From the NCBI GenBank assembly GCA_964635905.1, contig CAZWPK010000003.1, positions 66,459 through 130,458 on the forward strand: a stretch of DNA of 64,000 nt, given 5' to 3'. The stretch is from an uncultured Pseudomonadales bacterium (GTDB lineage Bacteria > Patescibacteriota > Microgenomatia > UBA1400 > UBA12028). Shown here piece by piece: positions 17,147-38,791 of the stretch. The notes beneath the pieces are model-generated. The model saw nothing but the letters and a program-made list of their open reading frames with translations. It did not search any database and was not told the DNA's origin. A program made the translations under genes and the position numbers. Position 1 is the stretch's first letter. The number at the start of each line of letters is the position of its first letter.

Positions 17147-17186
17147 ACGTAAAAAGTGTTATTTATTGACCACTTCAAATTATACA

Positions 17187-18359: not shown

Positions 18360-18375
18360 TCTATTCTCTCATAAC

Positions 18376-18402: not shown

Positions 18403-18422
18403 ATCTGAGTCAATTTTGTTGA

Positions 18423-18827
18423 TTAGAAACCTTGTGGGATTTCAATCGATCCACCGACACTTGTTCCGAAGAATCGGTTAATCACGGCTGCGATTGCAAA
18501 TGCGGAGGCAACGATTGCAAGTCCGATAATTGCGTTCGTAATCTTTTGTCGTGCACTTTCAGTCTTTGATTTATCTCCACCTGCAGTGAGCCATTCGACT
18601 CCACCCCAGATTAAGTAGATAAAGACTAATAGTCCAACGATTCCTAAAATTAATCGGAGTGCTCCGTTAATTAAGGTTCCAATTTGCGTAATACGGAATC
18701 CTGCTTGACCTGCATCGACATCAATGGAGTCCTCATTTGGGACACCCGCTTGTGCCAAGATAGGGGTTACCGTTGCAAAAAATGTTGCTACAGCTGTAGT
18801 AACAGATGACAATACTTTTTTAGCCAT
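18423..18827 (-). CDS. VirB2/TrbC-like pilin family protein, candidate major pilin
   Basis: Signal peptide ending ILAQA. Mature part has helix - LTAGGDKSKTESARQKITNAIIG - helix. AGGAGA RBS 7 nt upstream. An extended -10 promoter lies upstream and a strong terminator downstream. Confidence 0.75.
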   Translation of the reverse strand: MAKKVLSSVTTAVATFFATVTPILAQAGVPNEDSIDVDAGQAGFRITQIGTLINGALRLILGIVGLLVFIYLIWGGVEWLTAGGDKSKTESARQKITNAIIGLAIVASAFAIAAVINRFFGTSVGGSIEIPQGF

Positions 18828-18864
18828 ATATTCTCCTATTAGTTTACTAATAGCTAGTATAACT

Positions 18865-18873
18865 ATTATACCA
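18865..18873 (-). promoter_or_regulatory. Extended -10 promoter element (TGgTATAAT) for pilin gene 18423..18827
   Basis: Minus strand reads tattatggTATAATagttatac...aataGGAGAatatATG. The hexamer is a perfect TATAAT with an upstream TG and an AT-rich spacer region. There is no good -35. Confidence 0.35.
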
Positions 18874-18936
18874 TAATACTAGGGAGATAACGGGTCAGAG
18901 TCAAGAGAGAACTTACGAAGTATTAGAAGTACTTCT

Positions 18937-19587
18937 TTATGGACACGAAGAACCTGCTTGCCAGGACCATGCTTTGGCAGCACCATTTTGACAGCTGCAC
19001 GGTTCCCAGTGTGCATAAGGAATACCAGTGGTTGTTTGACACTTTACATTAGCGGCAGCACCACCTACACAGTATCCTCCAGCGCCACCATCACTGGAGC
19101 TTACTCCAACCTGACAGATCTGAGTCCCCGTTCCAGAACCACCTGAGCCACCACTTCCGCCGTTGCTGCTACCGGGGACATATTGTTGAGGTTGATTTAA
19201 TCCTAACAAGCTTACTGGGCCACCATTGATTCCTAAGAAGTAGAAGAGAATTCCCACAATCGCAAACACTGATGCAAAAATTGCAAAACCCACTATGGCT
19301 TGCGTAATCATGCTTCGCGCTGCTTCGACTTTGCTTTTATCTCCACCCGCAAGTACCCAGTTAGCACCACCCCAAACTAAATATCCAAATAGAATTAACC
19401 CAGTGATTCCTAGTCCCACATTCGCAAGTCGAGCAATCAGTAATCCTAAATCCACCACAAAGTATCCAGCTGTTCCCGCATCCAAGGTGAGGTCGGGTGT
19501 AGCTCCAGGTGCGCCTTGAGCAAAAATTTGAGAAGGAGCAAGAATGAATAGGAGAATGAGAACAAAGAATATAGTCTTAATATTCAT
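18937..19587 (-). CDS. VirB2/TrbC-like pilin with a C-terminal Gly/Ser linker and a small Cys-rich domain
   Basis: Signal peptide (IFAQGAPG), helix - LAGGDKSKVEAARSMITQAIVG - helix, then a GSSNGGSGGSGGSGTGT linker and about 80 aa containing 6 Cys (CQVG..YCVGG..KCQTT..EPCSC..SSCP). Confidence 0.7.
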   Translation of the reverse strand: MNIKTIFFVLILLFILAPSQIFAQGAPGATPDLTLDAGTAGYFVVDLGLLIARLANVGLGITGLILFGYLVWGGANWVLAGGDKSKVEAARSMITQAIVGFAIFASVFAIVGILFYFLGINGGPVSLLGLNQPQQYVPGSSNGGSGGSGGSGTGTQICQVGVSSSDGGAGGYCVGGAAANVKCQTTTGIPYAHWEPCSCQNGAAKAWSWQAGSSCP

Positions 19588-19595
19588 AGATAAAA

Positions 19596-20036
19596 CTAGA
19601 ATTTTCCACCCATGATAGGAGTGGGAAGATTTTGCAAACCACCTGTTCCGGTTGCCGGAACTTGCTGTCTAGACGAAAAGGTCTTCCCGAAAATATTAAG
19701 CTGAATGCGATCACCAAGTCCGAAGAAGTTAAGGACAATTGCATAGATTGCAAACACCGAGGCGAGGACCACTAGTCCAATTGCTGCTTGGGTCAACGTA
19801 GCGCGGGCTTCTTCCACTTTCCCTTTATCTCCACCGGATGTTACCCATTTAAGCGCTCCTAAAAAGAAGAACACTAATACTGCAAGCGCTCCAACAGTTA
19901 ATGCTGCGCGAGCACCTATTTCAATTAGGTTCCCAAACGTTTGAATAGGTGAGATTTCTAATGTGCGGGACTGTAAGTCAATTACTTGTGTTGGGGTTGT
20001 AGGAGCCTTTGGTGCTTGTGCAAGATAGTTCATCAT
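19596..20036 (-). CDS. VirB2/TrbC-like pilin family protein
   Basis: helix - VTSGGDKGKVEEARATLTQAAIG - helix. No classical cleavable signal peptide. The gap to the upstream gene is 1 bp. Confidence 0.7.
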   Translation of the reverse strand: MMNYLAQAPKAPTTPTQVIDLQSRTLEISPIQTFGNLIEIGARAALTVGALAVLVFFFLGALKWVTSGGDKGKVEEARATLTQAAIGLVVLASVFAIYAIVLNFFGLGDRIQLNIFGKTFSSRQQVPATGTGGLQNLPTPIMGGKF

Positions 20037-20037
20037 A

Positions 20038-20391
20038 TTAAAGATTATTGGCGAACTCTGGTTGTAATAGATTAAAGCCTAATAGACTACTAATGAACAA
20101 ACTGATTGCAACGGTACCCACAAGCACGAGCAGACCGATGATTGATTGGGTAATCCTATTTCGTGCACTTTCAATTTTCCCTTTATCACCTCCGGCCAAA
20201 ATCCATTCCAATGCTCCGTAAATCAACATTACCAGAAGGGCAATGCTTCCTAATGTAACCGCAGTTCGCCACAGAGTAACAATAATATTTCCTAGCGCAA
20301 ATGCTCCTGTTCCTGCACCAAAATCTGCTGTAATTGCAGGGTTAGTAATGACATTCTGGTTTAGCTTTGACTGTGCGATGAATGCAAACAT
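20038..20391 (-). CDS. VirB2/TrbC-like pilin family protein
   Basis: helix - ILAGGDKGKIESARNRITQSIIG - helix. 117 aa. Confidence 0.7.
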   Translation of the reverse strand: MFAFIAQSKLNQNVITNPAITADFGAGTGAFALGNIIVTLWRTAVTLGSIALLVMLIYGALEWILAGGDKGKIESARNRITQSIIGLLVLVGTVAISLFISSLLGFNLLQPEFANNL

Positions 20392-20393
20392 AC

Positions 20394-20756
20394 TTATGGT
20401 GTTAATTTTTGTAATACGGAAATAGGATCTAAAATATCAATTCCTAAAACTCCACCCACAATTCCTGAAATTGCATAGGCAGCAATAACCACGACTAGTC
20501 CGAGAGCAGCTTGTGTCATCTGGCTACGAGCACTTTCAACTTTTCCTTTATCTCCACCAGCTGACACCCAAGAGAGTCCAGCAAAGATTAAGTAGATAAG
20601 AAACATTAAGCCAGCTAGGGCCGTTAAAAATCCAATGAAAGTGCTCACAAAGGTGACAACAGGTGTACCAGCGCCGACTGCGTCCGATCCCGTTGGGGCA
20701 AATGGAGAGGCAATTGGGGCGATAGTTCCGAGTCGGACAGCGATAAGATTAAACAT
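20394..20756 (-). CDS. VirB2/TrbC-like pilin family protein
   Basis: helix - VSAGGDKGKVESARSQMTQAALG - helix. 120 aa. Confidence 0.7.
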   Translation of the reverse strand: MFNLIAVRLGTIAPIASPFAPTGSDAVGAGTPVVTFVSTFIGFLTALAGLMFLIYLIFAGLSWVSAGGDKGKVESARSQMTQAALGLVVVIAAYAISGIVGGVLGIDILDPISVLQKLTP

Positions 20757-20761
20757 AAGTA

Positions 20762-21133
20762 TTATGGTGCCTGTGGAATATCTGGATTCAGGATATACAT
20801 TGCATCGCCAAATAATAGGAAACTGATGATACCTGTGATTCCAAACGAGCCGACAATCACGACTAGTCCGAGTAAACTGTTTGTGAGTTGCTGCATTGCT
20901 TGTTCGGTGGCCTTTGGATTTCCAGCAGAGCCAAGATAAGTGTAGCCGGCAGCTATGATATTAAATAAGCCGAACAAACCAGCAATGATGCTGATAAGTT
21001 TAACTACATTAGAAATGAAGCCGAAGATACCGATGCCACCTTGTGACGCAGCGTTAAAACGCTGTACCCCTGGTGGCGGGGTCACAACCCCGAAAATTCC
21101 TTGTGTGATGAGAACATAAGCGGTTGCGTACAT
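20762..21133 (-). CDS. VirB2/TrbC-like pilin family protein (divergent loop variant)
   Basis: helix - LGSAGNPKATEQAMQQLTNSLLG - helix. The start is placed at the internal Met (MYATAYVLI) to avoid overlapping the upstream paralog. The track ORF extends to 21175. Confidence 0.6.
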   Translation of the reverse strand: MYATAYVLITQGIFGVVTPPPGVQRFNAASQGGIGIFGFISNVVKLISIIAGLFGLFNIIAAGYTYLGSAGNPKATEQAMQQLTNSLLGLVVIVGSFGITGIISFLLFGDAMYILNPDIPQAP

Positions 21134-21146
21134 AGTGTAGTTTTTA

Positions 21147-21566
21147 TTATAGCGTAGAGTTAAAGATTTGGACACCAGTGATCAACTCTACGATTTGTAC
21201 AATCCAGTATGCTGCAAAAATTACTACTAACCCTAAAACGGCGGTGACAATCTGGTTTTTCCCTTGCTCCATGTTTTTGGCGTTCCCACCAGAGGCAATG
21301 ATCGCAAAACCTCCTCCGATCAGGAGAAATAGGAAGATTAACCCAGCAACAATGAATGCTAAAGGAACAAAAAGGTTAAGAAAAGCAGCAAGATTGGGGT
21401 ACAGTGAGCTAACACCCCGATCAACAATTGGTCCTCCAGGATAAACGGGAACTCCTTGGCCAGTTTTTAGTGAGGTTCCCAAGTCGATCTGTGACAAGAG
21501 TGTAAGCATATCTACTATGTAGTATACAATATTGCGTATGACTTTTCCTAAAGAAAAGGAACTCAT
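21147..21566 (-). CDS. VirB2/TrbC-like pilin family protein (divergent loop variant), first gene of the array
   Basis: helix - IASGGNAKNMEQGKNQIVTAVLG - helix. The N-terminus is uncertain (internal Met at ~21509). The annotated start overlaps the divergent sigma-factor start by ~35 bp. Confidence 0.6.
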   Translation of the reverse strand: MSSFSLGKVIRNIVYYIVDMLTLLSQIDLGTSLKTGQGVPVYPGGPIVDRGVSSLYPNLAAFLNLFVPLAFIVAGLIFLFLLIGGGFAIIASGGNAKNMEQGKNQIVTAVLGLVVIFAAYWIVQIVELITGVQIFNSTL

Positions 21567-22656: not shown

Positions 22657-22893
22657 ATGCAAATCTCACGACACTGGCGACTAAACAGTCAGAGGTACCG
22701 CCTTGAAGGAGTACGGTATCAGAACGGACATGTTAGTCTGCAAAACAGGCCAGTTGTGCTTGAGGTACGAGAATTTCGAGGTAAGGAAATCCTTTCTAAG
22801 GCAGTTGAAGTTGCCAATGCACAGCCAGTGACAGTGACAGAGACAGAGGCAGTGACTGTAGCAGATGTAACGACATATGGAAATCGAACATGA
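22657..22893 (+). CDS. Hypothetical small basic protein
   Basis: Start chosen at MQISRHWRL because an AAGGAGA RBS precedes it. The C-terminus has a VTVTETEAVTV low-complexity repeat. Confidence 0.35.
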   Translation: MQISRHWRLNSQRYRLEGVRYQNGHVSLQNRPVVLEVREFRGKEILSKAVEVANAQPVTVTETEAVTVADVTTYGNRT

Positions 22894-23432
22894 TTAGTAA
22901 TCATCTTGATCAAGTCACACTAGTAAATGCGCAAGATGAGGTCATTGGCTCCATGGATAAAGTTGAGGCGCATAAAGGAGATGGAAAGCTGCATCGAGCA
23001 ATCTCTGTGTTTTTGTTCAACGAGAAGGATGAATTGCTTATTCAGCAACGGAGTGCCAAAAAGATTGTGGGTGCGCATCAATGGGCAAATACCTGTTGTG
23101 GAAATGTTCGTCCCACAGATTCATATCTTGAATGTGCTACACGTAGGCTGTCTGAAGAATTAGGAATTACTGGGGTTACGCTAACACCCATTACTAAATT
23201 CATCTATAAGGTTCGGTGTAATGATGAATTTAGCGAGCATGAGGTAGACACAGTTTTTATTGGTACCTACACAGAGAAGGTTATGCCCAACCCCGGAGAG
23301 GTTCAAGCTTACCAGTGGATTATAAAAAGCGAACTTAGAGCACTGATGGACCAGCAAACTCTATCTTTCGCCCCCTGGGTACAGTTCTTGTTGCAGCAAC
23401 CAAAAGTTCAGAAGGTGTTATATGGTGAATAG
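22890..23432 (+). CDS. idi: Isopentenyl-diphosphate delta-isomerase, type 1 (Nudix fold)
   Basis: HRAISVFLFN, WANTCCGNVRP (catalytic Cys) and RRLSEELGIT align with E. coli Idi HLAFSSWLFN / WTNSVCGHP / RRCRYELGVEI. Confidence 0.8.
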   Translation: MISNHLDQVTLVNAQDEVIGSMDKVEAHKGDGKLHRAISVFLFNEKDELLIQQRSAKKIVGAHQWANTCCGNVRPTDSYLECATRRLSEELGITGVTLTPITKFIYKVRCNDEFSEHEVDTVFIGTYTEKVMPNPGEVQAYQWIIKSELRALMDQQTLSFAPWVQFLLQQPKVQKVLYGE

Positions 23433-24213
23433 TCGAGAAACAGGGGAACGAAGAATTCTGGGTGCACTAGCAGTTATTTCTAATCAGTCAGATATTTTGC
23501 TGATTAAAGATCCCCCCAAAGTAGAAGTTGCTGGTGCACAAAATCCGACAGCTATTAGTTGGTGGTCACGAACCGATAAGTATTCTTGGGGACTGCCTGG
23601 TGGAGGAAGGGGAGTTCAATCGAATGGTCAAGAAGAAACTTTGCTGATGACACTCTCTGGTGAGTTTACGGAAGAAGTAACAAAAAGGGAGGGTCGTCCC
23701 CATCGCAGACTTCCGTCTCCAAATACTAGGAGTGTAACCCAACAACCCTATCCCAACGTGGTGGCACAGGAAAAGAAGATTGAAGGGGAGTCTTTGTTTA
23801 TTCACCAATTTGGTGTGACATCCGTACATATCCCGCATGCGGGACTCACTAAGATCGCGCGCAAAGATATTCAACGAGCTTTGGATGAAGAACGAGCAGT
23901 TTGGATAAGTCTTCAGACACTAATAGACATCTTTAATAGTGAGGACCCTAGGTCAGCAAAAAGCGGTGACTTGAATTTTCGCCCTCAAGTTTTGATGACA
24001 GCGTATATTTGGTACCTGACATTCTCGGGGATTTCACCTTCGCATTTTAATGAAACAATCATTGAATCTAATAAAGGTGTCATTAGTTTTGTTGCAGAGT
24101 ATGCTGCTAGAACATATGGAACAATTAAAAATGGCTCGTTTGACATGAACGGTAGACTTGCTCAGCTAAATACATCAGATCGATTATTCTTACTTGGGAA
24201 GCAACGACAATGA
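23422..24213 (+). CDS. Hypothetical protein with a degenerate Nudix-like box
   Basis: WGLPGGG...SGEFTEEV resembles a Nudix box but lacks the RE dyad. It overlaps idi by 11 bp and the next gene by 4 bp, which suggests an operon. Confidence 0.4.
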   Translation: MVNSRETGERRILGALAVISNQSDILLIKDPPKVEVAGAQNPTAISWWSRTDKYSWGLPGGGRGVQSNGQEETLLMTLSGEFTEEVTKREGRPHRRLPSPNTRSVTQQPYPNVVAQEKKIEGESLFIHQFGVTSVHIPHAGLTKIARKDIQRALDEERAVWISLQTLIDIFNSEDPRSAKSGDLNFRPQVLMTAYIWYLTFSGISPSHFNETIIESNKGVISFVAEYAARTYGTIKNGSFDMNGRLAQLNTSDRLFLLGKQRQ

Positions 24214-25043
24214 AACACAATGTTACCCTTCTAAAGCTCGGTGGAGCAGTCATTACCAACAAGGAAATTCCTGAATCTGTTCGGACAGATGTTCTAGACA
24301 GACTGATTAAAGAAATTTCTCAGGCTCAAAAACAATCTTCTAAATTGCTAGTCCTTGGGAATGGCGCCGGTAGTTTTGCCCATGTTCCGGCGACTCGATA
24401 CAAAACCATCGATGGATTTGTTGGTTCAGATAGCCGAATTGGAATGGCAATAACACAGGATAGTGCCGCACGTCTAAATCGCATCGTGGTTGCATCTTGT
24501 CTTCGTGAGGATATTCCGGCTGTAAGTGTGGCACCCTCCAATTCATTAATTACCGAAGCCAAAGTTGCAACAACCTGGTTCTCGGAGGTCTTTGAAGAGT
24601 ATCTTCGTAACCAATTGACCCCCGTAACCTATGGGGATGTGCTCGTCGATCGAAAGCAAGGCTGTACGATCTGGTCTACAGATAAGGTATTTTCCTTTTT
24701 TGCGCGTCAATTTCAACAGCGTGACTGGAATGTCGAACAGATCATCCATGTGACGGAAGCAACTGGAGTATGGCAAAAGGAAGGCAGTGATTGGAAAATG
24801 GATGGCACGGAGAAAGTCATCTATCCTCAGATTACTCCATCCATGCGGGAAGAGGTAAAATTATCGATGACGGATACAAAAGGATTTGATGTCACCGGTG
24901 GAATGTGGCACAAGATTGAGGAAGCCCTATCGTTAACGGAGTTAGGAATCACCACCAGAATCATATCTGGTCTTGAACCTGGTAATGTATACAAAGTATT
25001 AACCGGTGATACTTCGATTGGAACCACGATACATGGTGATTAA
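24210..25043 (+). CDS. Isopentenyl phosphate kinase (amino-acid kinase fold)
   Basis: LLKLGGAVITNK at the N-terminus and GFDVTGGMWHKIEEAL near the C-terminus match archaeal/Chloroflexi IPK (ILKLGGS..., DVTGGM.YKI). Confidence 0.7.
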   Translation: MKHNVTLLKLGGAVITNKEIPESVRTDVLDRLIKEISQAQKQSSKLLVLGNGAGSFAHVPATRYKTIDGFVGSDSRIGMAITQDSAARLNRIVVASCLREDIPAVSVAPSNSLITEAKVATTWFSEVFEEYLRNQLTPVTYGDVLVDRKQGCTIWSTDKVFSFFARQFQQRDWNVEQIIHVTEATGVWQKEGSDWKMDGTEKVIYPQITPSMREEVKLSMTDTKGFDVTGGMWHKIEEALSLTELGITTRIISGLEPGNVYKVLTGDTSIGTTIHGD

Positions 25044-25045
25044 TT

Positions 25046-25552
25046 ATGCCAGTTGATGATCAAGAAGAATTATTCTATTGGGTTAATGAAGCTGACGAAG
25101 TGCTTGGCAGTATCACGCGGTACCAGGCGCATCACTCCTTTAAACTGCATCGATCTATTGGAATCTTACTACGCAATGAGAAACAGGAGATGCTGTTTCA
25201 GCAGAGATCTCTACGTAAAGATCTCGACGGTGGGTTGTGGTTGTTTGCAGTTGGAGGACATGTAGCATTTGGGGATAGTTACGAGACGACCGCAAATCGA
25301 GAATTACAAGAAGAATTAGGAATTACTGCAGAGCTTACTTTTCTTAGAAAAGTAATATTTAACACAGGGAAGGAATATCAAATGGCCGGTATTTTTTCCG
25401 CAACAATTCCAAAAGCGACACCTTTACAATTAGACCCAATTGAAATTCAAGCAACAGCATGGGTTCCAATCAACGGCATTGCAGTGTTTACGCTCTCGCA
25501 TCCCTGCACTAATTGGACGATTGAAACTCTTAAGCAGACAGGATTTTTGTAG
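25046..25552 (+). CDS. Nudix hydrolase (IDI-like but lacking the catalytic Cys)
   Basis: HRSIGILL.N...GGHVAFGDSYETTANRELQEELGIT Nudix box. VGGH replaces the idi Cys motif. Confidence 0.65.
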   Translation: MPVDDQEELFYWVNEADEVLGSITRYQAHHSFKLHRSIGILLRNEKQEMLFQQRSLRKDLDGGLWLFAVGGHVAFGDSYETTANRELQEELGITAELTFLRKVIFNTGKEYQMAGIFSATIPKATPLQLDPIEIQATAWVPINGIAVFTLSHPCTNWTIETLKQTGFL

Positions 25553-25571: not shown

Positions 25572-26270
25572 ATGAAGCAAACTTCCAACATCCCAAACCA
25601 TCTCGCAATCATCATGGATGGAAATCGTCGTTGGGCACGATCCCATGGATGGGAAGCAATACGTGGTCACGAATACGTAGTCGATAACGTTATCGAACCA
25701 ATCGTGGATCGCTGTATTGAACTAGGTATTTCCTATCTAACCTTGTGGGCATTTAGTACAGAAAATTGGGAACGTGACAAACGCGAAATCGAAGGAATGA
25801 TGCAATTATTCCGACGTGCATTTGAGAAGAAGGTTGAAGACTTACATAAAAAAGGAGTGAAACTCCAGATTATTGGCGATATTGATCGGTTTCCCGAAGA
25901 CATTGCCAACAATGCCAAACGCTGGGTAGAGATATCGAAAGATAACACGAAGATTACGGTGAGCTTTGCGTTAAACTATGGGGGAAGGGAAGAATTGTTG
26001 CGCGCAATCAACTTGCTTCATCAACAGACTCCGACAGCGACAACAATTACCCAAGCTGACCTGGAATTACACCTTGCAACTACAGGCATGCCAGATCCCG
26101 ACTTAATCATTCGTCCTGGTGGACAGTTTCGACTATCCGGATTTTTGCCTTGGCAATCAGTGTATTCGGAGCTGTATTTCACTGACATTCTGATGCCGGA
26201 TTTTCAAGTCAATGAATTAAACGCAGCTTTAGAAGACTATGCCAACCGACAGCGTCGATTTGGCAAATAA
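25572..26270 (+). CDS. uppS: Undecaprenyl/isoprenyl diphosphate synthase (cis-prenyltransferase)
   Basis: HLAIIMDGNRRWA, TLWAFSTENWERDK, and the C-terminal RxG and FLPWQS motifs. Confidence 0.9.
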   Translation: MKQTSNIPNHLAIIMDGNRRWARSHGWEAIRGHEYVVDNVIEPIVDRCIELGISYLTLWAFSTENWERDKREIEGMMQLFRRAFEKKVEDLHKKGVKLQIIGDIDRFPEDIANNAKRWVEISKDNTKITVSFALNYGGREELLRAINLLHQQTPTATTITQADLELHLATTGMPDPDLIIRPGGQFRLSGFLPWQSVYSELYFTDILMPDFQVNELNAALEDYANRQRRFGK

Positions 26271-26738
26271 ACCCTTGTTAATTTCCGCACTTTGTTTCTA
26301 AAAACGTGTATGTTCACGAAGTCGGTTGTGGAGTTGCTCCTGATGTGTTTCCACCCGAGGGAATAGCTGTCGAACCTACTGGAGTCGCAGCACTCATCGG
26401 TCCACTTCCACCTCCCAAAGGGAGCGGTGTACTCACTACTGTAGGTGCGGGAGTCGAACCAAGGAGTGGAAGGGGTGTCCCAGCTTTTCAAACGATGAGT
26501 AGTTGTTCTGGATCCGAACTCATACTGTACTTAGATAAAATGGTGTGTGAAGAACAAAATAAACCGTACGCGTATGTTGTTTCCGACAATGGACAGTGTT
26601 ATGCGGTTTTTACCGCCCTTCAAAACCCCCACAGATCGTGCGATTGAAAAGCTAGGGTGTGAATATGGATTTGGTCCAGGGAATATGTTTAACTTCGGAG
26701 TTTCTAACGTTTCGATTCACTAATTCAAAAGTTCAAAT

Positions 26739-27851
26739 TTACAGAATATCAACGCGTAGGATTAGTTCCACTAATTGAGCTAAGAAATAGGAACAAAAGA
26801 GCAGCAAGAAACCGACAATGGCGTTCGTGATCCGTTGTTTTCCTGCCTCTTGGCTTTTGGGATTTGCGGCTCCAGTGAGCATTTCAAATCCTCCCCACAT
26901 AATCATGACGAAAAGAATGAGTCCGGCAAACGTAAACAAGTAAGGCAATAACCGAGAGATGATCCCTCTGGGGGTCGTGAGATCGGCAGTAGGCTGCTCA
27001 GCGAAAATTGAACTATTTAAGCTATCGAAAAGGGCAGTGGTGTTTTCACATACTCCTCGTGGAAAGGTACAGTCGCCAAGACCACACCCTTGAGTATTAC
27101 CACTGGTGCAGTAACTTGCGCCTCTTGAATTGATATACACCCTTGCATATCCATTTTGACGACAGAGAGCTTCTGCTTGACTGCGAAGCATTAATTGGTC
27201 GACGTTAAGGTTGATCTGTTGCCCCATACTGATCTGTCGAGCGTGCTGTTTTTGTTCTCGACTGCACAAGACATCCGTTCCATTTTCCTCAATACAGGTT
27301 TCTGTAACACTTCCATTTCCTAACAGCTGACACGAATCTGGAGCAAGTGTGAGTTGCGCTTGATTTGCGGTGGCTAAACATTGGGTGTTGGTTGCCTCTG
27401 TCCATCCGCAGCAACGTGCATTCGTTCCGCCAGCCGGATCGGTCAGAGAGATATTGGGGCACGTGGAGGGGCAATTATAATTATCTCGTGCATGTGTCCA
27501 CTTTGTTCCACAGGTTACGGTGCTACCGGGTGGGGCTAGAGGAAGAAAAGCAGATGAACATGCCCATTCGCGTCCCGGACGTTGTTGTGGGGTCTGAGTG
27601 AGTCCTAGCGGTGCAAACGCATCGACCCAGGTTGAATTCCGACAGACATAACACAGATTGTCGGTTCCCCAACACGCAGTTCCTTCCGCATACGATGCAA
27701 GCCCGTTTTCACATTTGGGTCCGCAGAGAGCTTGAGCTTTTGATGGCAGGAAAAATCCGACGCAAAAAAACAAACTAAGAATGAATACTTGGATTGTGAT
27801 TGCACTTCGCACCATCTTCTTAGTGTAGAAGATTTTCCATGATTGGTCCAA
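26739..27851 (-). CDS. Secreted Cys-rich extracellular domain fused to a C-terminal VirB2/TrbC-like pilin module
   Basis: Signal peptide (probable start MVRSAITIQV at ~27815). About 270 aa with 26 Cys. The C-terminal 75 aa (TPRGIISRLLPYLFTFAGL...TGAANPKSQEAGKQRITNAIVG...) match the pilin family and are ~85% identical to 27861..28184. Confidence 0.7.
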   Translation of the reverse strand: MDQSWKIFYTKKMVRSAITIQVFILSLFFCVGFFLPSKAQALCGPKCENGLASYAEGTACWGTDNLCYVCRNSTWVDAFAPLGLTQTPQQRPGREWACSSAFLPLAPPGSTVTCGTKWTHARDNYNCPSTCPNISLTDPAGGTNARCCGWTEATNTQCLATANQAQLTLAPDSCQLLGNGSVTETCIEENGTDVLCSREQKQHARQISMGQQINLNVDQLMLRSQAEALCRQNGYARVYINSRGASYCTSGNTQGCGLGDCTFPRGVCENTTALFDSLNSSIFAEQPTADLTTPRGIISRLLPYLFTFAGLILFVMIMWGGFEMLTGAANPKSQEAGKQRITNAIVGFLLLFCSYFLAQLVELILRVDIL

Positions 27852-27860
27852 CAGTGAGAC

Positions 27861-28184
27861 TTACAAGATGTCTACGCGAAGCACTAATTCGACAAGTTGG
27901 GCGATGAAGTACGAACAGAAAAGCAGCATAAACCCGATGATTGCGTTCATGATGCGATTTTTACCTGCTTCCTGACTTTTAGGATCAGAGGCGCCTGTTA
28001 ACATTTCCATTCCACCCCAAATGATCATGATAAAGAGAATTAGGCCAGCAAAGGTGAAAATATACGGGAGTAATTCAGAGATAATTCCACGAGGGGTTTG
28101 AAACTGTGCGACTTTGGCTGGATCAACACCGTCGAATATTTGATCATTAAGGTCTTGGATGAATTGCGCGTTGGGTTCTACCAT
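27861..28184 (-). CDS. VirB2/TrbC-like pilin module protein without a signal peptide
   Basis: The C-terminal 75 aa are near-identical at the protein level to those of 26739..27851 but diverged at the DNA level. The start is set at the internal Met (MVEPNAQ) to avoid overlap. The track ORF runs to 28232. Confidence 0.55.
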   Translation of the reverse strand: MVEPNAQFIQDLNDQIFDGVDPAKVAQFQTPRGIISELLPYIFTFAGLILFIMIIWGGMEMLTGASDPKSQEAGKNRIMNAIIGFMLLFCSYFIAQLVELVLRVDIL

Positions 28185-28191
28185 AGAAATT

Positions 28192-29538
28192 CTATGTGCC
28201 AAATCCTGGGATTTGAAGGAGTTTAACTCCAATAAACTGAAGAATGATCACAGAAAAGATGATGAATAAAATTCCCATAATTGCAGATGTCACCATCTCT
28301 TGACCTTCTTGCACTCGTTTTGGATCACCAGATGAAGTTGTCAGTAAGAATGCTCCATAGAGGATAACTAGGAGAACGATTCCACCAGCAAGGCCTAAGA
28401 TGATTCGTAAGAATGACTGAATCATACCCGTGGGAGATGTTTGAACACAACCAAAAGCTGTCCACAAACTACTAGGAGCGGCACTATCAGAGACGAGTCC
28501 TTCTTGCCCAGGCTCAGCTCCACCGCCACCTGAACCATAACATCTTAAACACTTATCACGGTCTGTTTGACCTTGAGGACCAGTATTATCTGCTTGTAAG
28601 CAGAGAGCAAAAGCGGGGTTTTCAGTGTCTGCTCCTGGGCCTTCTACCGGATTTCCCGTTTGCGGGTCAATTCTAAATGAAGCGAATTGACATGCGACTT
28701 CTACACCGCCGTTGGAATTTTGTCTTATTAGACGGAAGGAGGCACCATTGTACGACTTGTTAAAGACGTCCGTCACGGTTAAAGATGGAGCACAGTTTGT
28801 GGCTGGTGTACAGTTCGTGGATTGTTCCCGGATTTCCTGTCCATTTGCATTGGTTCCTAAGTACTGAAGGTAATACCACCTACCATCATTAGTATTAAAT
28901 CCATTTGATGGAAAATTTGCAGTAATCGATGTGGTTGTAGCTGATATATTAGCTAATGCTGGAGAGAAAACTACAGCACTGCAGGTAGGTTCCTGCGATT
29001 CGAACTCAGGACTTTCTATGTCTAATAAGCTGAGTATTCTAGAAAGATCTTCTTGGCGACAAATTGTCCAAGACTGAGTTGATAATGTAGCATTTAACGT
29101 TTTTCCTTTAAATTGAGCAACATCTCCAGCTGAGAATTGAACCGAAAAAGTATTTCCAGAACGCAAGAGATTAGCTCCGGAGAAGCTTTTTGAATAACCA
29201 TCCCCTGTAAAGGTTAAGGTTGGAGTCTGACCAGTCATGAATGAATCAAGAGTGGTGGTATTATATGAGGTTTGAACAGATATGGAGATCGTGTCACTTG
29301 GTCCAATTAATGCAATTTGTCCACTCCTGATCCGATCTTGATCAACTTGTGGGAGATGACTGAAGTTACCGTTGGTTGAAAAAAGGATAATTTTACGTCC
29401 ATCTGGGGCTACATAAGATTGAGGAATTGATGTGACAGTACACACTGCAGGCGCCTGAGCGAATGCGTTCTGAACAAAACCTACAAAAAATAGAATGGAT
29501 TGCAGGATGATGGCCAACAACTTAAAAGCAGTCCTCAT
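28192..29538 (-). CDS. Secreted ~370-aa extracellular domain fused to a C-terminal VirB2/TrbC-like pilin module
   Basis: Probable start MRTAFKLLAIIL... with signal peptide NAFAQAP (the track ORF extends to 29616). The C-terminus reads helix - TTSSGDPKRVQEGQEMVTSAIMG - helix. Confidence 0.65.
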   Translation of the reverse strand: MRTAFKLLAIILQSILFFVGFVQNAFAQAPAVCTVTSIPQSYVAPDGRKIILFSTNGNFSHLPQVDQDRIRSGQIALIGPSDTISISVQTSYNTTTLDSFMTGQTPTLTFTGDGYSKSFSGANLLRSGNTFSVQFSAGDVAQFKGKTLNATLSTQSWTICRQEDLSRILSLLDIESPEFESQEPTCSAVVFSPALANISATTTSITANFPSNGFNTNDGRWYYLQYLGTNANGQEIREQSTNCTPATNCAPSLTVTDVFNKSYNGASFRLIRQNSNGGVEVACQFASFRIDPQTGNPVEGPGADTENPAFALCLQADNTGPQGQTDRDKCLRCYGSGGGGAEPGQEGLVSDSAAPSSLWTAFGCVQTSPTGMIQSFLRIILGLAGGIVLLVILYGAFLLTTSSGDPKRVQEGQEMVTSAIMGILFIIFSVIILQFIGVKLLQIPGFGT

Positions 29539-29681
29539 ACCTACTAATTTTACCATGAAGCGTGAAAATCTAGAGGGGGAGATCGATTTTAGGTTAGATT
29601 TATAGATAGGTCTCATATCTTGAGGACATTTCCCACTATCTTCGGGTGTGCGAATGATGAGATCTTCGGTAGAATAGAGAG

Positions 29682-31439
29682 ATGTTTCATCGGATCACGC
29701 GAGTCTTAATTGTTATCTTTTTGGCTGGAATTGTATATACCCAGATGCCCATTGGACAGTATTGGGTGGCTGCTGTGGATTCCATTGAAGAACTGCAACG
29801 TCAGATCGATGAGTTAGGGAAGTTAAAAAAAATGTCAGAGGATGCAACTGCTCCCTTAGAGAAGGAAGTGAAGACGTTGGATTCCCGGATAAAGAGTGCT
29901 CAAAATGGAATCGTAACCGCACAAAAGAACTGGGAAGAGGCAGAAAAGCAAATTTCCATTCGTGAAACTAATCTGGGAACAACATATAAGCTCTTCTCTA
30001 GTCGAGTAGCTGAGAGTTATCGTCGTACCCAGGCCTACGATCCCTTTATTTTAATACTTGCTTCCAACGATTTTGTCACCCTATCTAATTCGCTAGCTTA
30101 TCAACAAAAGGCTCGAGAACGCGACCAAGCAGAATTAAAGCGTCTAAGTACGGAAATTAGTTCTCTTGAGGCTGATAAAAAGAAGCATGAAGAAACCAAA
30201 AAAACCTTAGCTGGTCTGCAAAAGAAATTGGATGAAAGTGCAGCGTTCTTTAAAGGAGAGATCGACAAGGCACGCAAGTATCAGCAAGATCTGGCAGGGA
30301 AGATTGCCGCTCTTTCTGCCGAGCAGCAGCGGTTGCTTTCTGAACGATCGGGGACTGCGACAACTAGTGTAGGGAATGCCCCCTCTTCTAAAGAACCCTG
30401 TTCCGGACCACCCGGTTCTCCGACCTATTGTGACCCCGGGTTTTCACCCGGCTTTGCGGTGTTTTCTTTTGGAGCGCCTCATTTTAATGGCCTATCGCAG
30501 TATGGTGCCTACGGACGTGCCAAGACTGGTCAAAACGTGGAGACAATCCTTAAAGCCTATTATGGGGGCGTCGAGATTAAGAAAGATTGGTCCACTGGCG
30601 TGACTATCTCGGTGAGTGGGCATGGAAGTGTGGACATTGAAACCTATACCAAGCGAATCTACGAAATGCCGACATCCTGGGGGGATAACGGGGGATTTGA
30701 AGCACTGAAGGCTCAGGCTGTCGCAGCCCGGTCCTACGCCCTAGCAGTTACCAACAATGGAGAGAAAAGCATTTGTGCCACGGAGGCGTGTCAGGTGTAT
30801 AAGCCATCCAACAAAGGCGGGAAATGGGATGAAGCGGTGGATGCGACTCGAGGATGGGTCTTGATTGCAAATGGAAAGCCCTTTATGGCAAAGTATGCCT
30901 CGACTGCGGGAGGATATATTCAGTCCTACACGTCCAATGGGCATAGCACCCCTGGCTTGTGGGATACCACTAGCGACTGGACACGCTGGGCGGATGGAGC
31001 CTACGAAGGAGCGGGAAAAGGCGATAGTCCTTGGTTCTATAAGGGCTGGTACAAGAGTCGTTCCGGAGATTCCTGTGGGAAAACCCATCCTTGGCTAACG
31101 CAGACAGAATTTGCCGATGTTCTCAATGCCTGGGTTGTTCGATATAAAGGCAATAGTGCCGATGTAGCTCGGATTACTCCAGTTAGCAGTTGTAACGGTG
31201 GGAATCCTTTCTCCATGGATGAGCTCAAAAATAAAGCCAACGAGCTTGGTGGAGCGTTCACAACCGTTTCCTCAATTCGGGTAGAACACGGAAACAACGG
31301 ATTTACGAAAAATGTCATTGTTGACACGAATAAGGGGTCGGTAACGATTCCAGGGGCAGAATTCAAAACCGCATTCAATCTTCGTGCTCCCGGCAGAATC
31401 TCGGTGAAGGGAAATCTGTTTGGCATCGAGCGAAAATAA
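29682..31439 (+). CDS. Coiled-coil protein with a C-terminal SpoIID/LytB domain (peptidoglycan remodelling)
   Basis: N-terminal TM, then ~200 aa of coiled-coil heptads. The C-terminus has LKAQAVAARSYAL, CATEACQVY and YASTAGGY, which match SpoIID/LytB signatures. Confidence 0.7.
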   Translation: MFHRITRVLIVIFLAGIVYTQMPIGQYWVAAVDSIEELQRQIDELGKLKKMSEDATAPLEKEVKTLDSRIKSAQNGIVTAQKNWEEAEKQISIRETNLGTTYKLFSSRVAESYRRTQAYDPFILILASNDFVTLSNSLAYQQKARERDQAELKRLSTEISSLEADKKKHEETKKTLAGLQKKLDESAAFFKGEIDKARKYQQDLAGKIAALSAEQQRLLSERSGTATTSVGNAPSSKEPCSGPPGSPTYCDPGFSPGFAVFSFGAPHFNGLSQYGAYGRAKTGQNVETILKAYYGGVEIKKDWSTGVTISVSGHGSVDIETYTKRIYEMPTSWGDNGGFEALKAQAVAARSYALAVTNNGEKSICATEACQVYKPSNKGGKWDEAVDATRGWVLIANGKPFMAKYASTAGGYIQSYTSNGHSTPGLWDTTSDWTRWADGAYEGAGKGDSPWFYKGWYKSRSGDSCGKTHPWLTQTEFADVLNAWVVRYKGNSADVARITPVSSCNGGNPFSMDELKNKANELGGAFTTVSSIRVEHGNNGFTKNVIVDTNKGSVTIPGAEFKTAFNLRAPGRISVKGNLFGIERK

Positions 31440-35182: not shown

Positions 35183-35953
35183 TTATTCCCCATGGGCGAG
35201 TACTAGCGCAACGACGACTTTCACCCCGGATTTTTTAAGTGTTCGGGCACATTCCTGAAGCGTAGACCCCGTTGTACAGACATCGTCGATGAGAATGACT
35301 TTTGGGGGAATTTTTGACGAATTTGGAACTGAAATATTCATGGAATCTTTGAGATTGAGGAGACGGTGTTCCCGCGATAGCTGAGCTTGCGGTGGTGTGC
35401 TTTTTGTTTTTATTAAGAGGTTTGGAAGTAGATAGATGCCAAGTTTGGTTGATAATTGTTGTGCATACAACTGGCTTGCATTAAATCCTCGTTCCCACCG
35501 CTTTTTCCAGTGCAGTGGAACCGGAACGATGGCAGTTGTTTGTCTTGAAAACGAGTTCCAAATTCCAAGTTTTTCCCCTTGCCAATGCAGGAGATTCCCA
35601 CCCAGACTTGCCATATCATAGATGAGACGATATTTAACTGCTCTAATTAATATGGCGATGACTCCATCATAGTTTGAAACGGCATACAGCCCATCCAGTG
35701 TCGTTTTACTTTTACACCGGCTATGTACTCCAAAATGGTTGAGTTCTTTCATGCAGCCAGGGCAAAGGTACGTAGAATTGAAATGCATCGTTTGAAAACA
35801 GGTTGAACAGAGATAGTCCCCAAAGGCACCACATCCGATACAGTCTTTGGGAAAGATAACGTCCAAGAGAAACGTAAGATGCCCCATATTCTTAGCATAC
35901 ATCGTTCTCAAGATGTCTGATATACTAGAGGTACGGATTGAAGATTGTGGCAA
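35183..35953 (-). CDS. comFC: ComF family protein (competence phosphoribosyltransferase, ComFC-like)
   Basis: N-terminal zinc-ribbon Cys pairs (CIGCG..C..C, CPGC) and the C-terminal PRTase motif VILIDDVCTTGSTL. The true start may be the internal Met at ~35902. Confidence 0.75.
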   Translation of the reverse strand: MPQSSIRTSSISDILRTMYAKNMGHLTFLLDVIFPKDCIGCGAFGDYLCSTCFQTMHFNSTYLCPGCMKELNHFGVHSRCKSKTTLDGLYAVSNYDGVIAILIRAVKYRLIYDMASLGGNLLHWQGEKLGIWNSFSRQTTAIVPVPLHWKKRWERGFNASQLYAQQLSTKLGIYLLPNLLIKTKSTPPQAQLSREHRLLNLKDSMNISVPNSSKIPPKVILIDDVCTTGSTLQECARTLKKSGVKVVVALVLAHGE

Positions 35954-35978: not shown

Positions 35979-36065
35979 GGAGAGGTCGCATAGTGGCCTA
36001 GTGCGGAAGTCTTGAAAACTTCTGTGGGTTTACGCTCACCGTGGGTTCGAATCCCACCCTCTCCG
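35979..36065 (+). tRNA. tRNA-Ser (anticodon UGA), type II with a long variable arm
   Basis: Acceptor GGAGAGG/CCTCTCC, anticodon stem GAAGT/ACTTC with loop CUUGAAA, T-arm GTGGG-TTCGAAT-CCCAC, discriminator G. Confidence 0.8.
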
Positions 36066-37817
36066 CAATACTGAACAAACAGGCTCTAGATCAAGCATTT
36101 GCACGGATAGATCAGCATATTTCCCAGGTTGTAATCTATTTGCTGTGTCCAACATTTCTCTCTTGCCTTTTTCAACTAAAAAGTACGATTTATCCCCATC
36201 TATCAGTAATTTTCGTTCAAATACTCGTAGGTTAGAACCAAGTTTCTTTAATACATAAGTCTTTTCTTGAACCGTGCCATGCTCAAATTGGTATCTTGCG
36301 GTACTGACAAAATCAAATGTTTCCTTAGTTTGAGCGATCCACTGTTGCTGTTGAACGTCAGCTTCTTCAAGTTTCTTTTTTAGGTCTGCTTTCTTATTTG
36401 AGATAGATAATTCCTCTTCCTCGTATAGTTTTTTTCTATCACCATCGTATTCAAGATACTCAGGAGAAATGCGTATTCGAATAAGCGACTTTAACTGATC
36501 ATCCATCCGCTTATACTCTCGAAGTAGTCTCTCTTTTACTTCCGTGTCTTTTTTTTCTTCTGTCAGGTTTAACTCATGAATATACTCAAACGCCCAATTT
36601 TTAAACTCCTCTGGAATTTCAAACCTTTGTAATTCTTGATCTATTTTCCTTTCCAGATCTTTCACAGACAGACTTCCTTGAGTACAGTTTTCATGGATCT
36701 TTTTCGTACAACGGTAATGGACATACTGAAGCGTCTTAGGATGTTCCATCTCTTCCAATTTTGTATTACAAGCAGGGCATTTGCTGGTTAATTTTCCTTT
36801 ATGGAATTTGGTCTTACAGACTGGGCAGATTATTTGCCATTTTTCTTCACAAGTGATTGACCCCTGACATTCTCCGCAGATCAGCACTTGTTTATATGGA
36901 AAGTCCTTTTTTGTGTAATGAGAAGTTCTTTTTCCCGATAAACGAATTTGTATTTGCTCAAATTCTCCTTCTTTGATCATTGGTTCATGTTTTCCAGTCT
37001 CTTCTTTAATTTCCTTTTCAACCCTCCTCCTCATGAGTCTATAGTAAAAAGGATCTCTAAGTATTCCGTAGAAAGTTGTTCGACTCATGGGGCGACTTGG
37101 GTGCTTCAAGGTCTGACGTGTCTTGTATCCCCACTCGTTGTTTAGTAAATCAAAGATCTTCATAGGAGCCCCACCTCCCGCAATCATTTTTAGGGCATTT
37201 TGGATTATTGGGAAACGCTCTCGATCTGTGATAATTGTATTTTCCTTTGTTAAAGGGTTCGTATAATTCAAATACCCAGGCTTCGCAGGACCACCCCACT
37301 CTTTCCTTTCAATGAATTTCTCTCGATTGCCTCGACGAACATTCTTACTAAGATCATCAGATGATTTTTTAGTGAGAGTAAAGTCAATTCCTAGAGACAT
37401 CTTGTCATCACTGTTATTGGTAAAAATTCTCTGTGGGGTTCTAAATTCAATTAGTTTTTCCTCATCAAAAAGATAGATAAAACTCCCTGAATCCTTACTG
37501 TTTCGTGCAATTCGAGATGAATCCCAAGCTAAAACTGCATTTCCTTCTCCCATTTCAATGCGTTGAACCATTTCGTTAAAATACGTTCTCCCAATTTTAA
37601 AAGCACTTTTTGACTCTTTATACAATTCGACTATTCTCAATCCAAACCTATTCGCATACTCGGAGAGTATTTTCTCTTGATCAGGGAGTGATGCTATTTG
37701 CTTGTCCTCACTATCACTGCTCTTACGACAATAGATAAAGAATTTAATTTTTTGGAGATCAATTTCATGAGTTCGCAATGGAAAACCGCCACTTGTTAAA
37801 ATAGCGAATGAAAACAA
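36036..37817 (-). CDS. Large serine recombinase (phage/ICE-type integrase) with its 5' end interrupted by an IS30-family element
   Basis: Resolvase catalytic domain (FIYCRKSSDSEDKQIASLPDQ, LAWDSSRIARN), a recombinase domain and a Cys4 zinc ribbon (CGECQG...CPVC...CPAC). The last 10 codons are antisense to the tRNA-Ser T-arm (GWDSNPR). The first ~15 codons (..SGGFPLR..) are read out of the left IS inverted repeat, so the native N-terminus is probably displaced. Confidence 0.75.
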   Translation of the reverse strand: MFSFAILTSGGFPLRTHEIDLQKIKFFIYCRKSSDSEDKQIASLPDQEKILSEYANRFGLRIVELYKESKSAFKIGRTYFNEMVQRIEMGEGNAVLAWDSSRIARNSKDSGSFIYLFDEEKLIEFRTPQRIFTNNSDDKMSLGIDFTLTKKSSDDLSKNVRRGNREKFIERKEWGGPAKPGYLNYTNPLTKENTIITDRERFPIIQNALKMIAGGGAPMKIFDLLNNEWGYKTRQTLKHPSRPMSRTTFYGILRDPFYYRLMRRRVEKEIKEETGKHEPMIKEGEFEQIQIRLSGKRTSHYTKKDFPYKQVLICGECQGSITCEEKWQIICPVCKTKFHKGKLTSKCPACNTKLEEMEHPKTLQYVHYRCTKKIHENCTQGSLSVKDLERKIDQELQRFEIPEEFKNWAFEYIHELNLTEEKKDTEVKERLLREYKRMDDQLKSLIRIRISPEYLEYDGDRKKLYEEEELSISNKKADLKKKLEEADVQQQQWIAQTKETFDFVSTARYQFEHGTVQEKTYVLKKLGSNLRVFERKLLIDGDKSYFLVEKGKREMLDTANRLQPGKYADLSVQMLDLEPVCSVLRRGWDSNPR

Positions 37818-38791
37818 GGAAGCATTTAAGTGATCAGGAACGGGATCAGATTGCAGTCTGGAGAGCCCAAAAAACTAGTATTCGGGAGATTGCTCGGAGA
37901 CTGGGACGACATCACTCCTCCATTGAAGCAGAGCTCCAGAGGAACCGATGGGGTGAAGCATATATTGCCATCCATGCAAAGAAAGAGACGAGGAAGAGAA
38001 TGCAGACTGCTAGGAAGAAACATCCTCTAAAGGATCCTGCAACATATGCGTATGTATTGGAGAGACTCCGGTGGGGATGGAGTCCAGAAGAGATCTCTGG
38101 AAGATTGGAATTGGAGAGAGGAGAAAAGTTCTTGCATCATGAAAGTATCTACCGATTCATCTATGCCCAGAAAAACAAAGGTTTGAAGTTGTGGGAGTAC
38201 CTTCCCAGAAAACAGAAGAAAAGAAGGAAACAAACAGGGAGAAGTAGTCACAAGAGTAGGATTCCAAACAGAGTCTCCATTCACCAGAGGCCAGAGGAGA
38301 TTGAGTCAAGAGAGGTGTTTGGACATTGGGAGGGAGATTCAGTGGTGGGACTAGGAAAGAAGGAATCCATACAGAGGTAGAGAGAAAGACCAGGTTTCTT
38401 CTCGCTAAGAAGGTTGCAAAGATCGGAGCTGTGGAAACAGCTGATGCTCAGGTCCAACTGTTTGCACCACTTCCAAACAAAGCAAGGAAGACCACCACGG
38501 TGGACAATGGAAAAGAATTCACTAAACATGAACAGGTCACGATACATATGGGACTGAAGATCTATTTTGCAGATCCATATTCATCTTGGCAAAGAGGAAC
38601 CAATGAAAACACAAATGGAAGACTGAGAAGATATCTTCCCAAGAAAACCAGTTTCAAAGAATTGGAACAAACAGAGCTGGATGAGATTGTAGCAGAGATC
38701 AACAATCATCCCAGAAAGTGTTTACAATACAGAAAGCCAGTAGAAGCATTTAATCAGGAGTTAACAACTACTGGCGGTTTTCCATTGCGAA
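37772..38791 (+). mobile_element. IS30-family insertion sequence (~1020 bp) with 20-bp perfect terminal inverted repeats
   Basis: Left inverted repeat ttcgcaatggaaaaccgcca at 37772..37791, and its exact reverse complement at 38772..38791. The transposase reads out through the right repeat (..TGGFPLRM*). Confidence 0.7.

Follow-up and report, generated by a model that had tools for sequence, protein, structure and literature searches.

A conserved Microgenomates locus joins VirB2-like hairpins to ectodomains, one of which is replaced between close relatives

A 64-kb stretch of DNA from an uncultivated, ultra-small bacterium of the class Microgenomatia (GenBank assembly GCA_964635905.1, contig CAZWPK010000003.1, positions 66,459 to 130,458; the whole stretch is hereafter 'the window') carries three tandem minus-strand open reading frames (ORFs), termed g3, g2 and g1, whose C-termini all form a two-transmembrane (TM) hairpin homologous to the pilins of an eight-gene array in the same window. 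In g3, the ectodomain in front of this hairpin has been replaced outright between close relatives, with breakpoints flanking the domain. The reading put forward here, to which a probability of about 0.45 is given, is that g3 and g1 act, next to bare subunits, as ectodomain-bearing minor, tip or sparse subunits of a VirB2-like assembly in which g3 would be an exchangeable cassette for specificity. Homologues of the three ORFs are referred to by subfamily as g1-type and g3-type.

Replacement of the g3 ectodomain

Three loci, L005, L001 and L008, represent close relatives of the window. Proteins encoded around g3 are highly similar to their counterparts in these genomes, with identities of 97% (SpoIID), 92% (UppS), 89% (g1) and 92% (g2) for L005 and of 92%, 94%, 87% and 81%, respectively, for L001; within g3, the N-domain is unalignable in both, the stalk and hairpin being 85% identical in L005 and the module 53% identical in L001. 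DNA homology to L005 (~80%) spans the intergenic region and the first nine g3 codons, ends at 29529 and restarts at 28617, at the stalk, whereas the breakpoints with L001 lie at 29641 and 28464, homology restarting at a WTAFGC motif just before the hairpin; as the breakpoints of the two relatives differ, the replacements would be independent events. The non-synonymous divergence (dN) of the L001 g3 module is 0.41 against a genome background of ~0.04, which indicates, as judged from substitution rates, the import of a distant allele at that locus. The three g3 N-domains of the window's clade measure 263, 246 and 308 residues, contain 6, 11 and 21 Cys, and have no pairwise similarity (E at least 0.14), nor does the N-domain of the window resemble those of database proteins P0034 and P0040 at the protein level (E at least 0.4). 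With a GC of 0.419, as compared with 0.439 in the window, the cassette bears no foreign signature in its base composition. Conservation of the hairpins matches that of their housekeeping neighbours, and ectodomains are fast-evolving.

Hyper-divergence in situ has to be weighed against replacement, with the g3 N-domain orthologous everywhere and diverged past recognition under diversifying selection. Other lineage pairs with SpoIID proteins 82–91% identical do keep g3-type N-domains alignable at 30–70%, a pattern of very fast yet continuous divergence. Within the window's clade, however, the N-domains are unlike in both length and Cys number and lack similarity in every pairing (again, E at least 0.14), homology vanishes within a few codons of sharp breakpoints that differ between L001 and L005, and the contrast between the module dN of 0.41 in L001 and the ~0.04 background points to an imported distant allele; hyper-divergence is accordingly considered improbable. 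The initial annotation had proposed cassette-style shuffling with breakpoints at the module boundary, and such a replacement is seen directly in g3, although not in g1 or g2 at the TPRGIIS motif to which the boundary had been assigned.

The shared hairpin module

The C-termini of g1, g2 and g3 match Pfam family PF18895 (T4SS_pilin; gathering score, 26.6 bits), g1 with 38.5 bits (E 1.3e-9) and g2 with 49.8 bits (E 3.6e-13); the g3 match of 24.5 bits (E 2.9e-5), over aa 393–462 of a 474-aa ORF, falls slightly below the gathering score, and orthologues of g3 bear a precomputed PF18895 label. A hidden Markov model (HMM) trained solely on the eight array pilins gives 72 bits for g2, 69 for the g1 module and 45 for the g3 module, against a maximum of 10.7 bits overall (9.7 for g3) among 300 shuffles per module, which rules out chance or generic TM composition as the source of the similarity. 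The first view of the three genes, as ending in one and the same VirB2-like module, is thereby upheld. All 11 modules in the window, eight from the array together with those of g1, g2 and g3, match PF18895 and have in common the loop motif GG..W/M.T.GGD/N.K..E.A/GK..I..A; in each of g1, g2 and g3, two TM helices enclose a short, conserved, charged loop (GGD/N.K..E..K/R). The g3-g2-g1 tandem thus also constitutes an array in the sense of 2–11 PF18895 genes lying in tandem or with one non-pilin gene between.

Two subtypes are distinguished, the g3 module being only ~31% identical to those of g1 and g2. The latter two agree at 65 of 78 residues (83%) and 71% of nucleotides, near the ~85% and ~70% estimated at the outset, with third codon positions only 38% identical; this low value and a saturated synonymous divergence (dS) make the g1/g2 duplication appear old, and rule out recent gene conversion between the two. 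Ratios of non-synonymous to synonymous divergence (dN/dS) of 0.015–0.03 for the g1 module and 0.03–0.07 for the g2 module, similar to those of the neighbouring SpoIID, UppS and kinase genes (0.02–0.06), fit the purifying selection that had been proposed for an old duplication. As originally described, g2 has no signal peptide or N-terminal hydrophobic segment, opening instead with an acidic 30-aa N-tail of net charge -4. Gene calls in four related genomes include it at 107 aa, orthologues being present in L001, L005 and L008, and on this conservation and the dN/dS of its module g2 is a functional, selected gene of expressed type; a status as pseudogene, or as the silent donor first suggested, is ruled out by the same observations.

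These results also bear on antigenic variation, in which g2 would act as a silent or intracellular donor and ectodomains would be shuffled among the three genes of one genome at the TPRGIIS boundary. The modules of g1 and g2 do follow a shared linker motif (..LN..IF..TPRGIIS) and are near-identical, offering a possible recombination arm. Third codon positions identical at 38%, however, exclude recent gene conversion; g2 is intact, called in four genomes and under purifying selection; the g1 ectodomain is stably inherited, with 85–91% identity in relatives; and the cassette that has been replaced lies in g3, whose module is the divergent one (~31% identity). Antigenic variation of this kind is very improbable.

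Signal-less PF18895 proteins were observed to open with a mini-leader, M-x(0-6)-[LIV][LIA]-A-Q, as in MLLAQ, MITLIAQ, MMNYLAQ and MFAFIAQ, with MVEPNAQ in g2. Its holders in the window are 27861..28184 (g2), 19596..20036, 20038..20391, 20394..20756 and 20762..21133, and it recurs in short g1-type genes of L014, L015, L026, L028, L040, L041, L046, L053 and L067. The 'AQ' is the same as that at the predicted signal-peptidase site of signal-bearing paralogues (..KAQA before L, ..AFAQA before P, ..ILAQA before G), and the mini-leader may be a short leader that is processed, or else what is left of a signal peptide since lost.

Conservation of the locus across Microgenomates

Homologues carry source names that put the window in Candidatus Woesebacteria, within the Microgenomates (candidate phyla radiation, CPR; Patescibacteria), and fall into two types: g1-type proteins, with a ~95-aa C-terminal module (50–96% identical) preceded by 0 to ~450 residues, and g3-type proteins, with a ~155-aa C-terminal unit, comprising a stalk with four invariant Cys and the hairpin, after a large variable region. 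The gene order in L001–L006 is SpoIID-like (divergent), g3-type, an optional bare copy (g2), g1-type and uppS (convergent), and the syntenic block extends to the main pilin array and an extracytoplasmic function (ECF) sigma factor gene ~5 kb beyond. When each GTDB species was surveyed by a single genome, 60 loci with a g1-type module emerged, from Woese-, Cerri-, Roizmanbacteria and other Microgenomates, in which a g3-type gene lies directly upstream of the g1-type gene in 51 cases, a SpoIID-like gene is present in 51 and uppS in about 40. The g3-type and g1-type genes are an ancient syntenic pair across Microgenomates, and these synteny counts mark the locus as part of the vertically inherited core of the class rather than an accessory island. 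In more distant relatives, DNA of the locus no longer aligns except where it codes for the hairpin.

Many of the metagenome-assembled genome records in the GTDB set that contain this CPR-specific locus (within L009–L066) are titled 'uncultured Pseudomonadales bacterium', while 'Vitreimonas sp.' and 'Methylococcaceae bacterium' each occur once; such titles evidently stem from placeholders, misnaming or bin contamination, and the organism labels of this collection are unreliable for the locus. In L003, two extra genes (499 and 103 aa) were considered as a 'split' form of the fusion, a candidate that was ruled out, their products being unrelated hydrophilic proteins.

Ectodomains of g3 and g1

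The extracellular part of g3 comprises ~340 residues with 10 Cys, six in the variable domain and four in the conserved stalk (C319, C336, C339 and C370, invariant in 21 aligned sequences), so that its earlier description as a ~370-aa, Cys-poor, beta-rich domain holds for the beta-rich character in the AlphaFold model and less well for size and Cys content. That model, from 21 sequences and with a mean pLDDT of 63, has a stalk, a helical hairpin and two beta-rich domains, the beta-sandwiches spanning aa 89–166 and 196–305 with a pLDDT of 70–84. Foldseek searches with it, at this overall confidence, retrieve tandem fibronectin type III (FnIII)/immunoglobulin (Ig)-like ectodomains, led by IL-12Rb1 (E 2.4e-5, probability 1.0) and including IL-4R, FnIII pairs of integrin beta4 and a bacterial ice-binding adhesin. 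A large ectodomain is almost always present in g3-type proteins (median 414 aa), and 54 g3-type N-domains resolve into 29 BLAST clusters, 20 of them singletons.

The ectodomain of g1 differs from that of g3, as the initial annotation had noted, and no relation between them is detected (single-pair BLAST, E 0.13). Rather than 26 Cys in ~270 residues, as first counted, it holds 20 Cys in a mature ectodomain of ~233 aa, 22 being present in the protein overall, and has one clear CG..Y..CP..CP...CCGW unit at ~aa 97–150; a single clean Cys-repeat unit could not be defined for g1-type ectodomains, the units being heterogeneous. The AlphaFold model of g1 (mean pLDDT 54) is confident only at this CCGW unit (~70–74) and the hairpin, and Foldseek with this poor model gives no match at E up to 0.001. 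Proteins of the g1-type are between 101 and 532 aa long: forms of up to 140 aa are without a signal peptide, like g2; those of 177–250 aa have a signal peptide and ~100 residues with 6 Cys; and longer forms contain up to 42 Cys. The bare, signal-less form is the commonest state of the g1-type gene in other species, and the g1 ectodomain appears to be a long variant of the Cys-rich region typical of the subfamily. It is retained in close relatives at 85–91% identity with a dN/dS of 0.04–0.05, in disagreement with the idea that it too is a shuffled cassette.

Domain and fold searches of both ectodomains had been envisaged from the start, and yielded a tentative match for g3 alone, by fold; Pfam detects no known domain in either. 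Among 1.84 billion representative sequences, the g3 ectodomain matched its own 98% twin, the 32%-identical g3-type protein P0058 and further proteins by the stalk only, with none found outside g3-type proteins, and among 5.8 billion proteins the g1 ectodomain matched only itself and its 88%-identical orthologue. From these searches the ectodomains appear to be family-specific and not taken from known adhesins or effectors; the proposal that adhesin or cargo domains had been borrowed onto the anchor is thus not sustained, and no support was found for an 'effector' role. One type of N-domain occurs on both module subtypes, in P0031 (g1-type) and P0036 (g3-type; E 8e-30), as either occasional swapping between the two genes or common ancestry could explain.

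Gene calls and coordinates

Coordinates are given in Table 1. Gene calls in public data independently arrive at the same lengths for g1 (358 aa), g2 (107 aa) and g3 (454 aa). The g3 ORF has a second, upstream ATG at 29616, from which it would encode 474 aa, and homologues begin MVKLVGM, in line with the ATG at 29556. In g3, a signal peptide is followed by the variable ectodomain, the Cys-stapled stalk and the VirB2-like hairpin; in g1, the signal peptide precedes a Cys-rich ectodomain, which the linker LFDSLNSSIF connects to the hairpin; hydrophobic segments correspond, with an N-terminal signal-like segment and two C-terminal TMs in g1 and g3 and two TMs only in g2. Gaps of only 7 and 45 nt separate g3, g2 and g1, which are therefore likely to form a single operon. 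Promoter and terminator scans returned sites no more numerous than in shuffled sequence.

Table 1. Coordinates of the g3-g2-g1 locus, its borders and the main pilin array in the window
Feature	Position	Strand	Basis and remarks
g3	28192..29556	-	ATG 29556; 454 aa; database protein P0063
g3 signal peptide, aa 1–33, ending ..NAFAQA before PAV	29458..29556	-	Hydrophobic segment; aligned signal peptides of 21 homologues; predicted cleavage site
g3 replaceable cassette (variable ectodomain)	28617..29529	-	No DNA homology to syntenic L005 and L001; flanks ~80% identical
g3 membrane-proximal stalk, aa 297–372	28441..28668	-	Four subfamily-invariant Cys (F.LC.QA...D..C..C...WTAFGC)
g3 hairpin module: TM1, loop SSGDPKRVQEGQE, TM2	28195..28440	-	Profile match, hydrophobicity, alignment, array-only HMM
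g2	27861..28184	-	ATG 28184; 107 aa; P0065; bare hairpin protein
g1	26739..27815	-	ATG 27815; 358 aa; P0001; ORF reaches back to TTG 27851
g1 Cys-rich ectodomain, aa 30–262, 20 Cys	27030..27728	-	Cys counts, alignment
g1 linker and hairpin module, aa 263–358	26742..27029	-	83% identical to g2 module; 50–96% identical across 60 GTDB species loci
SpoIID-like gene	29682..31439	+	Divergent from g3; conserved left border; Pfam SpoIID 3e-15
uppS (Prenyltransf)	25572..26270	+	Convergent with g1; conserved right border
Main array, eight small PF18895 pilin genes	16712..21566	-	Interrupted by GT87 glycosyltransferase gene at 17187..18359

Proposed role of the fused hairpins

In the subunit reading, Sec would export g3 and g1, with signal peptides cut at ..AQA, and the hairpin would insert so that its two ends face outwards and the basic loop is cytoplasmic, as in VirB2 before assembly, an orientation predicted because the loops are basic. 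The ectodomains would thus be placed on the cell surface, as two FnIII/Ig-like sandwiches on a disulfide-stapled stalk in g3 and as a disulfide-rich knot region in g1, while g2 would insert its acidic N-tail without a signal peptide and provide bare subunits with the module of g1. Bare forms have N-tails of net charge -6 to +1 and basic loops, and acidic or neutral tails of this kind can, we infer, cross the membrane without a signal peptide. The hairpins would then assemble with each other or pass through pilus machinery, the fused forms serving as minor, tip or sparse subunits that confer binding specificity, and g3 would be a strain-specific recognition cassette, swapped by homologous recombination on conserved flanks (the signal-peptide start on one side; the stalk or hairpin on the other). 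Assembly or handling by such machinery is suggested by the constraint on loop and helix residues, by the bare copies with the same module and by the co-variation of g3-type and g1-type hairpins, whose distances have a partial correlation of 0.66 when SpoIID distance is controlled for (permutation p about 0.0005, 46 loci). Incorporation of g1, g2 and g3 into a pilus is presumed in this reading.

Several observations weigh against this proposal. Shared phylogeny beyond what SpoIID captures can inflate the mirror-tree correlation, and the link between PF18895 and VirB2 is only weakly visible in profile comparisons. A Pfam scan of large ORFs throughout the 64-kb window turned up none of VirB4, VirD4, VirB6 and PrgI, nor any other recognisable gene of a type IV secretion system (T4SS), and the pair forms a separate single-copy core locus beside cell-wall genes, outside the array. 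An N-terminal domain of 230–340 aa on a VirB2-type subunit may clash sterically with helical packing as seen in F- and T-pilus structures, save at the tip or at low occupancy. Both AlphaFold models are, moreover, of low to moderate confidence, with mean pLDDT values of 54 (g1) and 63 (g3).

The main rival to the subunit reading takes the hairpin as a mere C-terminal double-pass anchor, g3, g2 and g1 forming a static, membrane-resident surface complex for adhesion or envelope maintenance that stays out of any pilus and whose likeness to PF18895 is ancestral only. Such a complex would suit a conserved core locus whose neighbours are genes of the cell envelope (SpoIID-like, uppS) instead of T4SS genes, a window without VirB4, and ectodomains of a size that fits a VirB2-type filament poorly. 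Plain anchors usually keep hydrophobicity only, however, and here loop and helix residues are invariant over 60 species, module dN/dS is 0.015–0.07, and it is the hairpin-coding DNA alone that still aligns in distant relatives; an anchor with nothing to hold would make no sense, yet bare copies exist (g2, and in many species the sole g1-type gene); and the flanking SpoIID and uppS genes, being respectively divergent from and convergent with the pair, belong to different operons. A role as static anchors is on balance doubtful, while deserving serious consideration.

Extended further, the subunit reading would make g1 and g3 the first native 'display pilins', VirB2-type subunits with folded domains of 100–450 aa that co-assemble with bare subunits and supply the adhesin of the patescibacterial T4SS-like pilus, with g3 as a horizontally exchanged, strain-specific host-recognition cassette and a determinant of host range in Microgenomates episymbionts; this wider proposal is speculative, and rather less probable than the narrower one. 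That the g3 ectodomain, with a different cassette in each close relative, is a host- or surface-recognition determinant is plausible. For host recognition and attachment in CPR/Patescibacteria, where a T4SS-like system with VirB2-like pilins is essential in the one lineage tested (PMC10633639) and no adhesin has been reported for it (PMC12102498), a class-wide locus that joins a pilin-like hairpin to surface domains, one of them swapped between near-identical genomes, is a concrete candidate for a specificity determinant. If correct, the proposal widens what the VirB2-type pilin scaffold can carry, and the g3 cassette could be used as a marker of strain-level and host-range diversity in metagenomes.

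Other features of the window

Within the main array, a gene for a polytopic GT87-family glycosyltransferase (17187..18359) sits between pilin genes 16712..17146 and 18423..18827, and glycosylation of pilin or envelope by its product is possible. One array pilin (18937..19587, 216 aa) has a ~90-aa Gly- and Cys-rich C-terminal extension with 6 Cys, predicted to form an ectodomain at the other, predicted-outside end of the hairpin. Two genes come straight after the array, at 11344..16702. The product of one is a secreted protein of 1177 aa in which aa 985–1103 weakly match SLT (lytic transglycosylase; E 0.15), the sole hint of a T4SS gene in the window; that of the other is a 620-aa polytopic membrane protein with no Pfam match. 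The two are possible divergent VirB1-like and VirB6-like components.

Between g1 and uppS, 26281..26720 contains frameshifted remnants of two genes that relatives L001 and L005 keep intact (153 aa; 293/317 aa), which indicates recent deletion or decay in the window genome. Next to uppS, 22890..25552 holds a pair of NUDIX genes together with one of the AA_kinase family (candidate product, isopentenyl phosphate kinase); in more distant relatives the corresponding position (L003 9568..13761) is taken by GHMP-kinase and MVD-like genes of the mevalonate pathway. The isoprenoid gene set appears to differ between lineages. A low-GC (0.39) insertion at 36036..40863, between a ComF-like gene (35183..35953) and nusA (41732..42862), contains genes for a large serine recombinase (593 aa), a transposase-like HTH_38 protein and a Fic/DOC-MerR protein; syntenic L005 has one 324-aa gene only at this site, and the insertion is probably an integrated mobile element.

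Relation to known systems

Arrays of 2–11 VirB2-like pilin genes have been described in Patescibacteria, where they are especially abundant in Microgenomatia (PMC12102498, PMC10633639, PMC12857230), lie near virB4 or other T4SS genes in 1135 of 1948 assemblies (PMC12102498) and are essential in Southlakia, a cultivated Saccharibacterium (PMC10633639). No recognisable adhesin (PrgB or VirB5) has been reported for the patescibacterial systems (PMC12102498). PF18895 has also been noted as the dominant domain of freshwater-specific structure clusters. The genes described here share with those arrays (Quinonero-Coronel et al. 2025, PMC12102498; Wang et al. 2023, PMC10633639) the Pfam family, the arrangement as tandem divergent paralogues and the Microgenomatia lineage, and a classical eight-gene array lies 5 kb from g1–g3 in the window. 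The described members are, however, small and bare, whereas two of the three genes at g1–g3 carry folded ectodomains of ~230–340 aa, the g3/g1 pair occupies a separate, deeply syntenic SpoIID-uppS locus, and one ectodomain of that locus is replaced between close relatives. In the searchable open-access literature, no mention was found of fusions of a PF18895/VirB2 hairpin to a large ectodomain, of the SpoIID-uppS locus or of ectodomain replacement.

Conjugative pilins of the VirB2/TrbC/TraA group (PF04956) resemble the present proteins in having a leader and a two-helix hairpin with a short basic loop and both ends predicted outside. Profile similarity to them is not significant, the best being TrbC for g2 only (E 0.041; 14.5 bits against a 27.9-bit cut-off); one array copy is weakly similar to CagC (E 0.0054), and a profile search of Protein Data Bank (PDB) sequences with all 11 modules returned no VirB2, TraA or other pilin. 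To our knowledge, mature VirB2-type pilins are ~50–90 aa long and have no folded extra domain. As a small protein made up essentially of the hairpin, g2 (107 aa) fits this pattern, unlike g1 (358 aa) and g3 (454 aa) with their ectodomains of 233 and ~340 aa, and no VirB4 lies near g1–g3. The tip and surface adhesins of T4SSs (VirB5/TraC/CagL in diderms; PrgB-type in Gram-positive bacteria) are comparable in the proposed role, namely binding specificity of a T4SS-associated surface structure. They are, however, separate proteins without a pilin module, whereas here the binding domain would be fused to a pilin-like hairpin, and neither in sequence nor in fold do g1 and g3 resemble VirB5 or PrgB.

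By analogy, a comparable architecture is that of the large minor pilins of type IV pili and of pIII of filamentous phages, in which a conserved assembly or anchor module is joined to a variable receptor-binding domain alongside a bare major subunit, as proposed for g1–g3. These are unrelated families and machines, and type IV pilins place the assembly helix at the N-terminus. In the VirB2 paralogue arrays of Bartonella and Anaplasma, multiple divergent copies have been proposed to diversify host interaction (as cited in PMC12102498), a likeness to the present genes in both copy divergence and suggested function; in that account the variation resides inside the small pilin, whereas at the locus described here the hairpin is conserved and the appended domain is swapped as a cassette.

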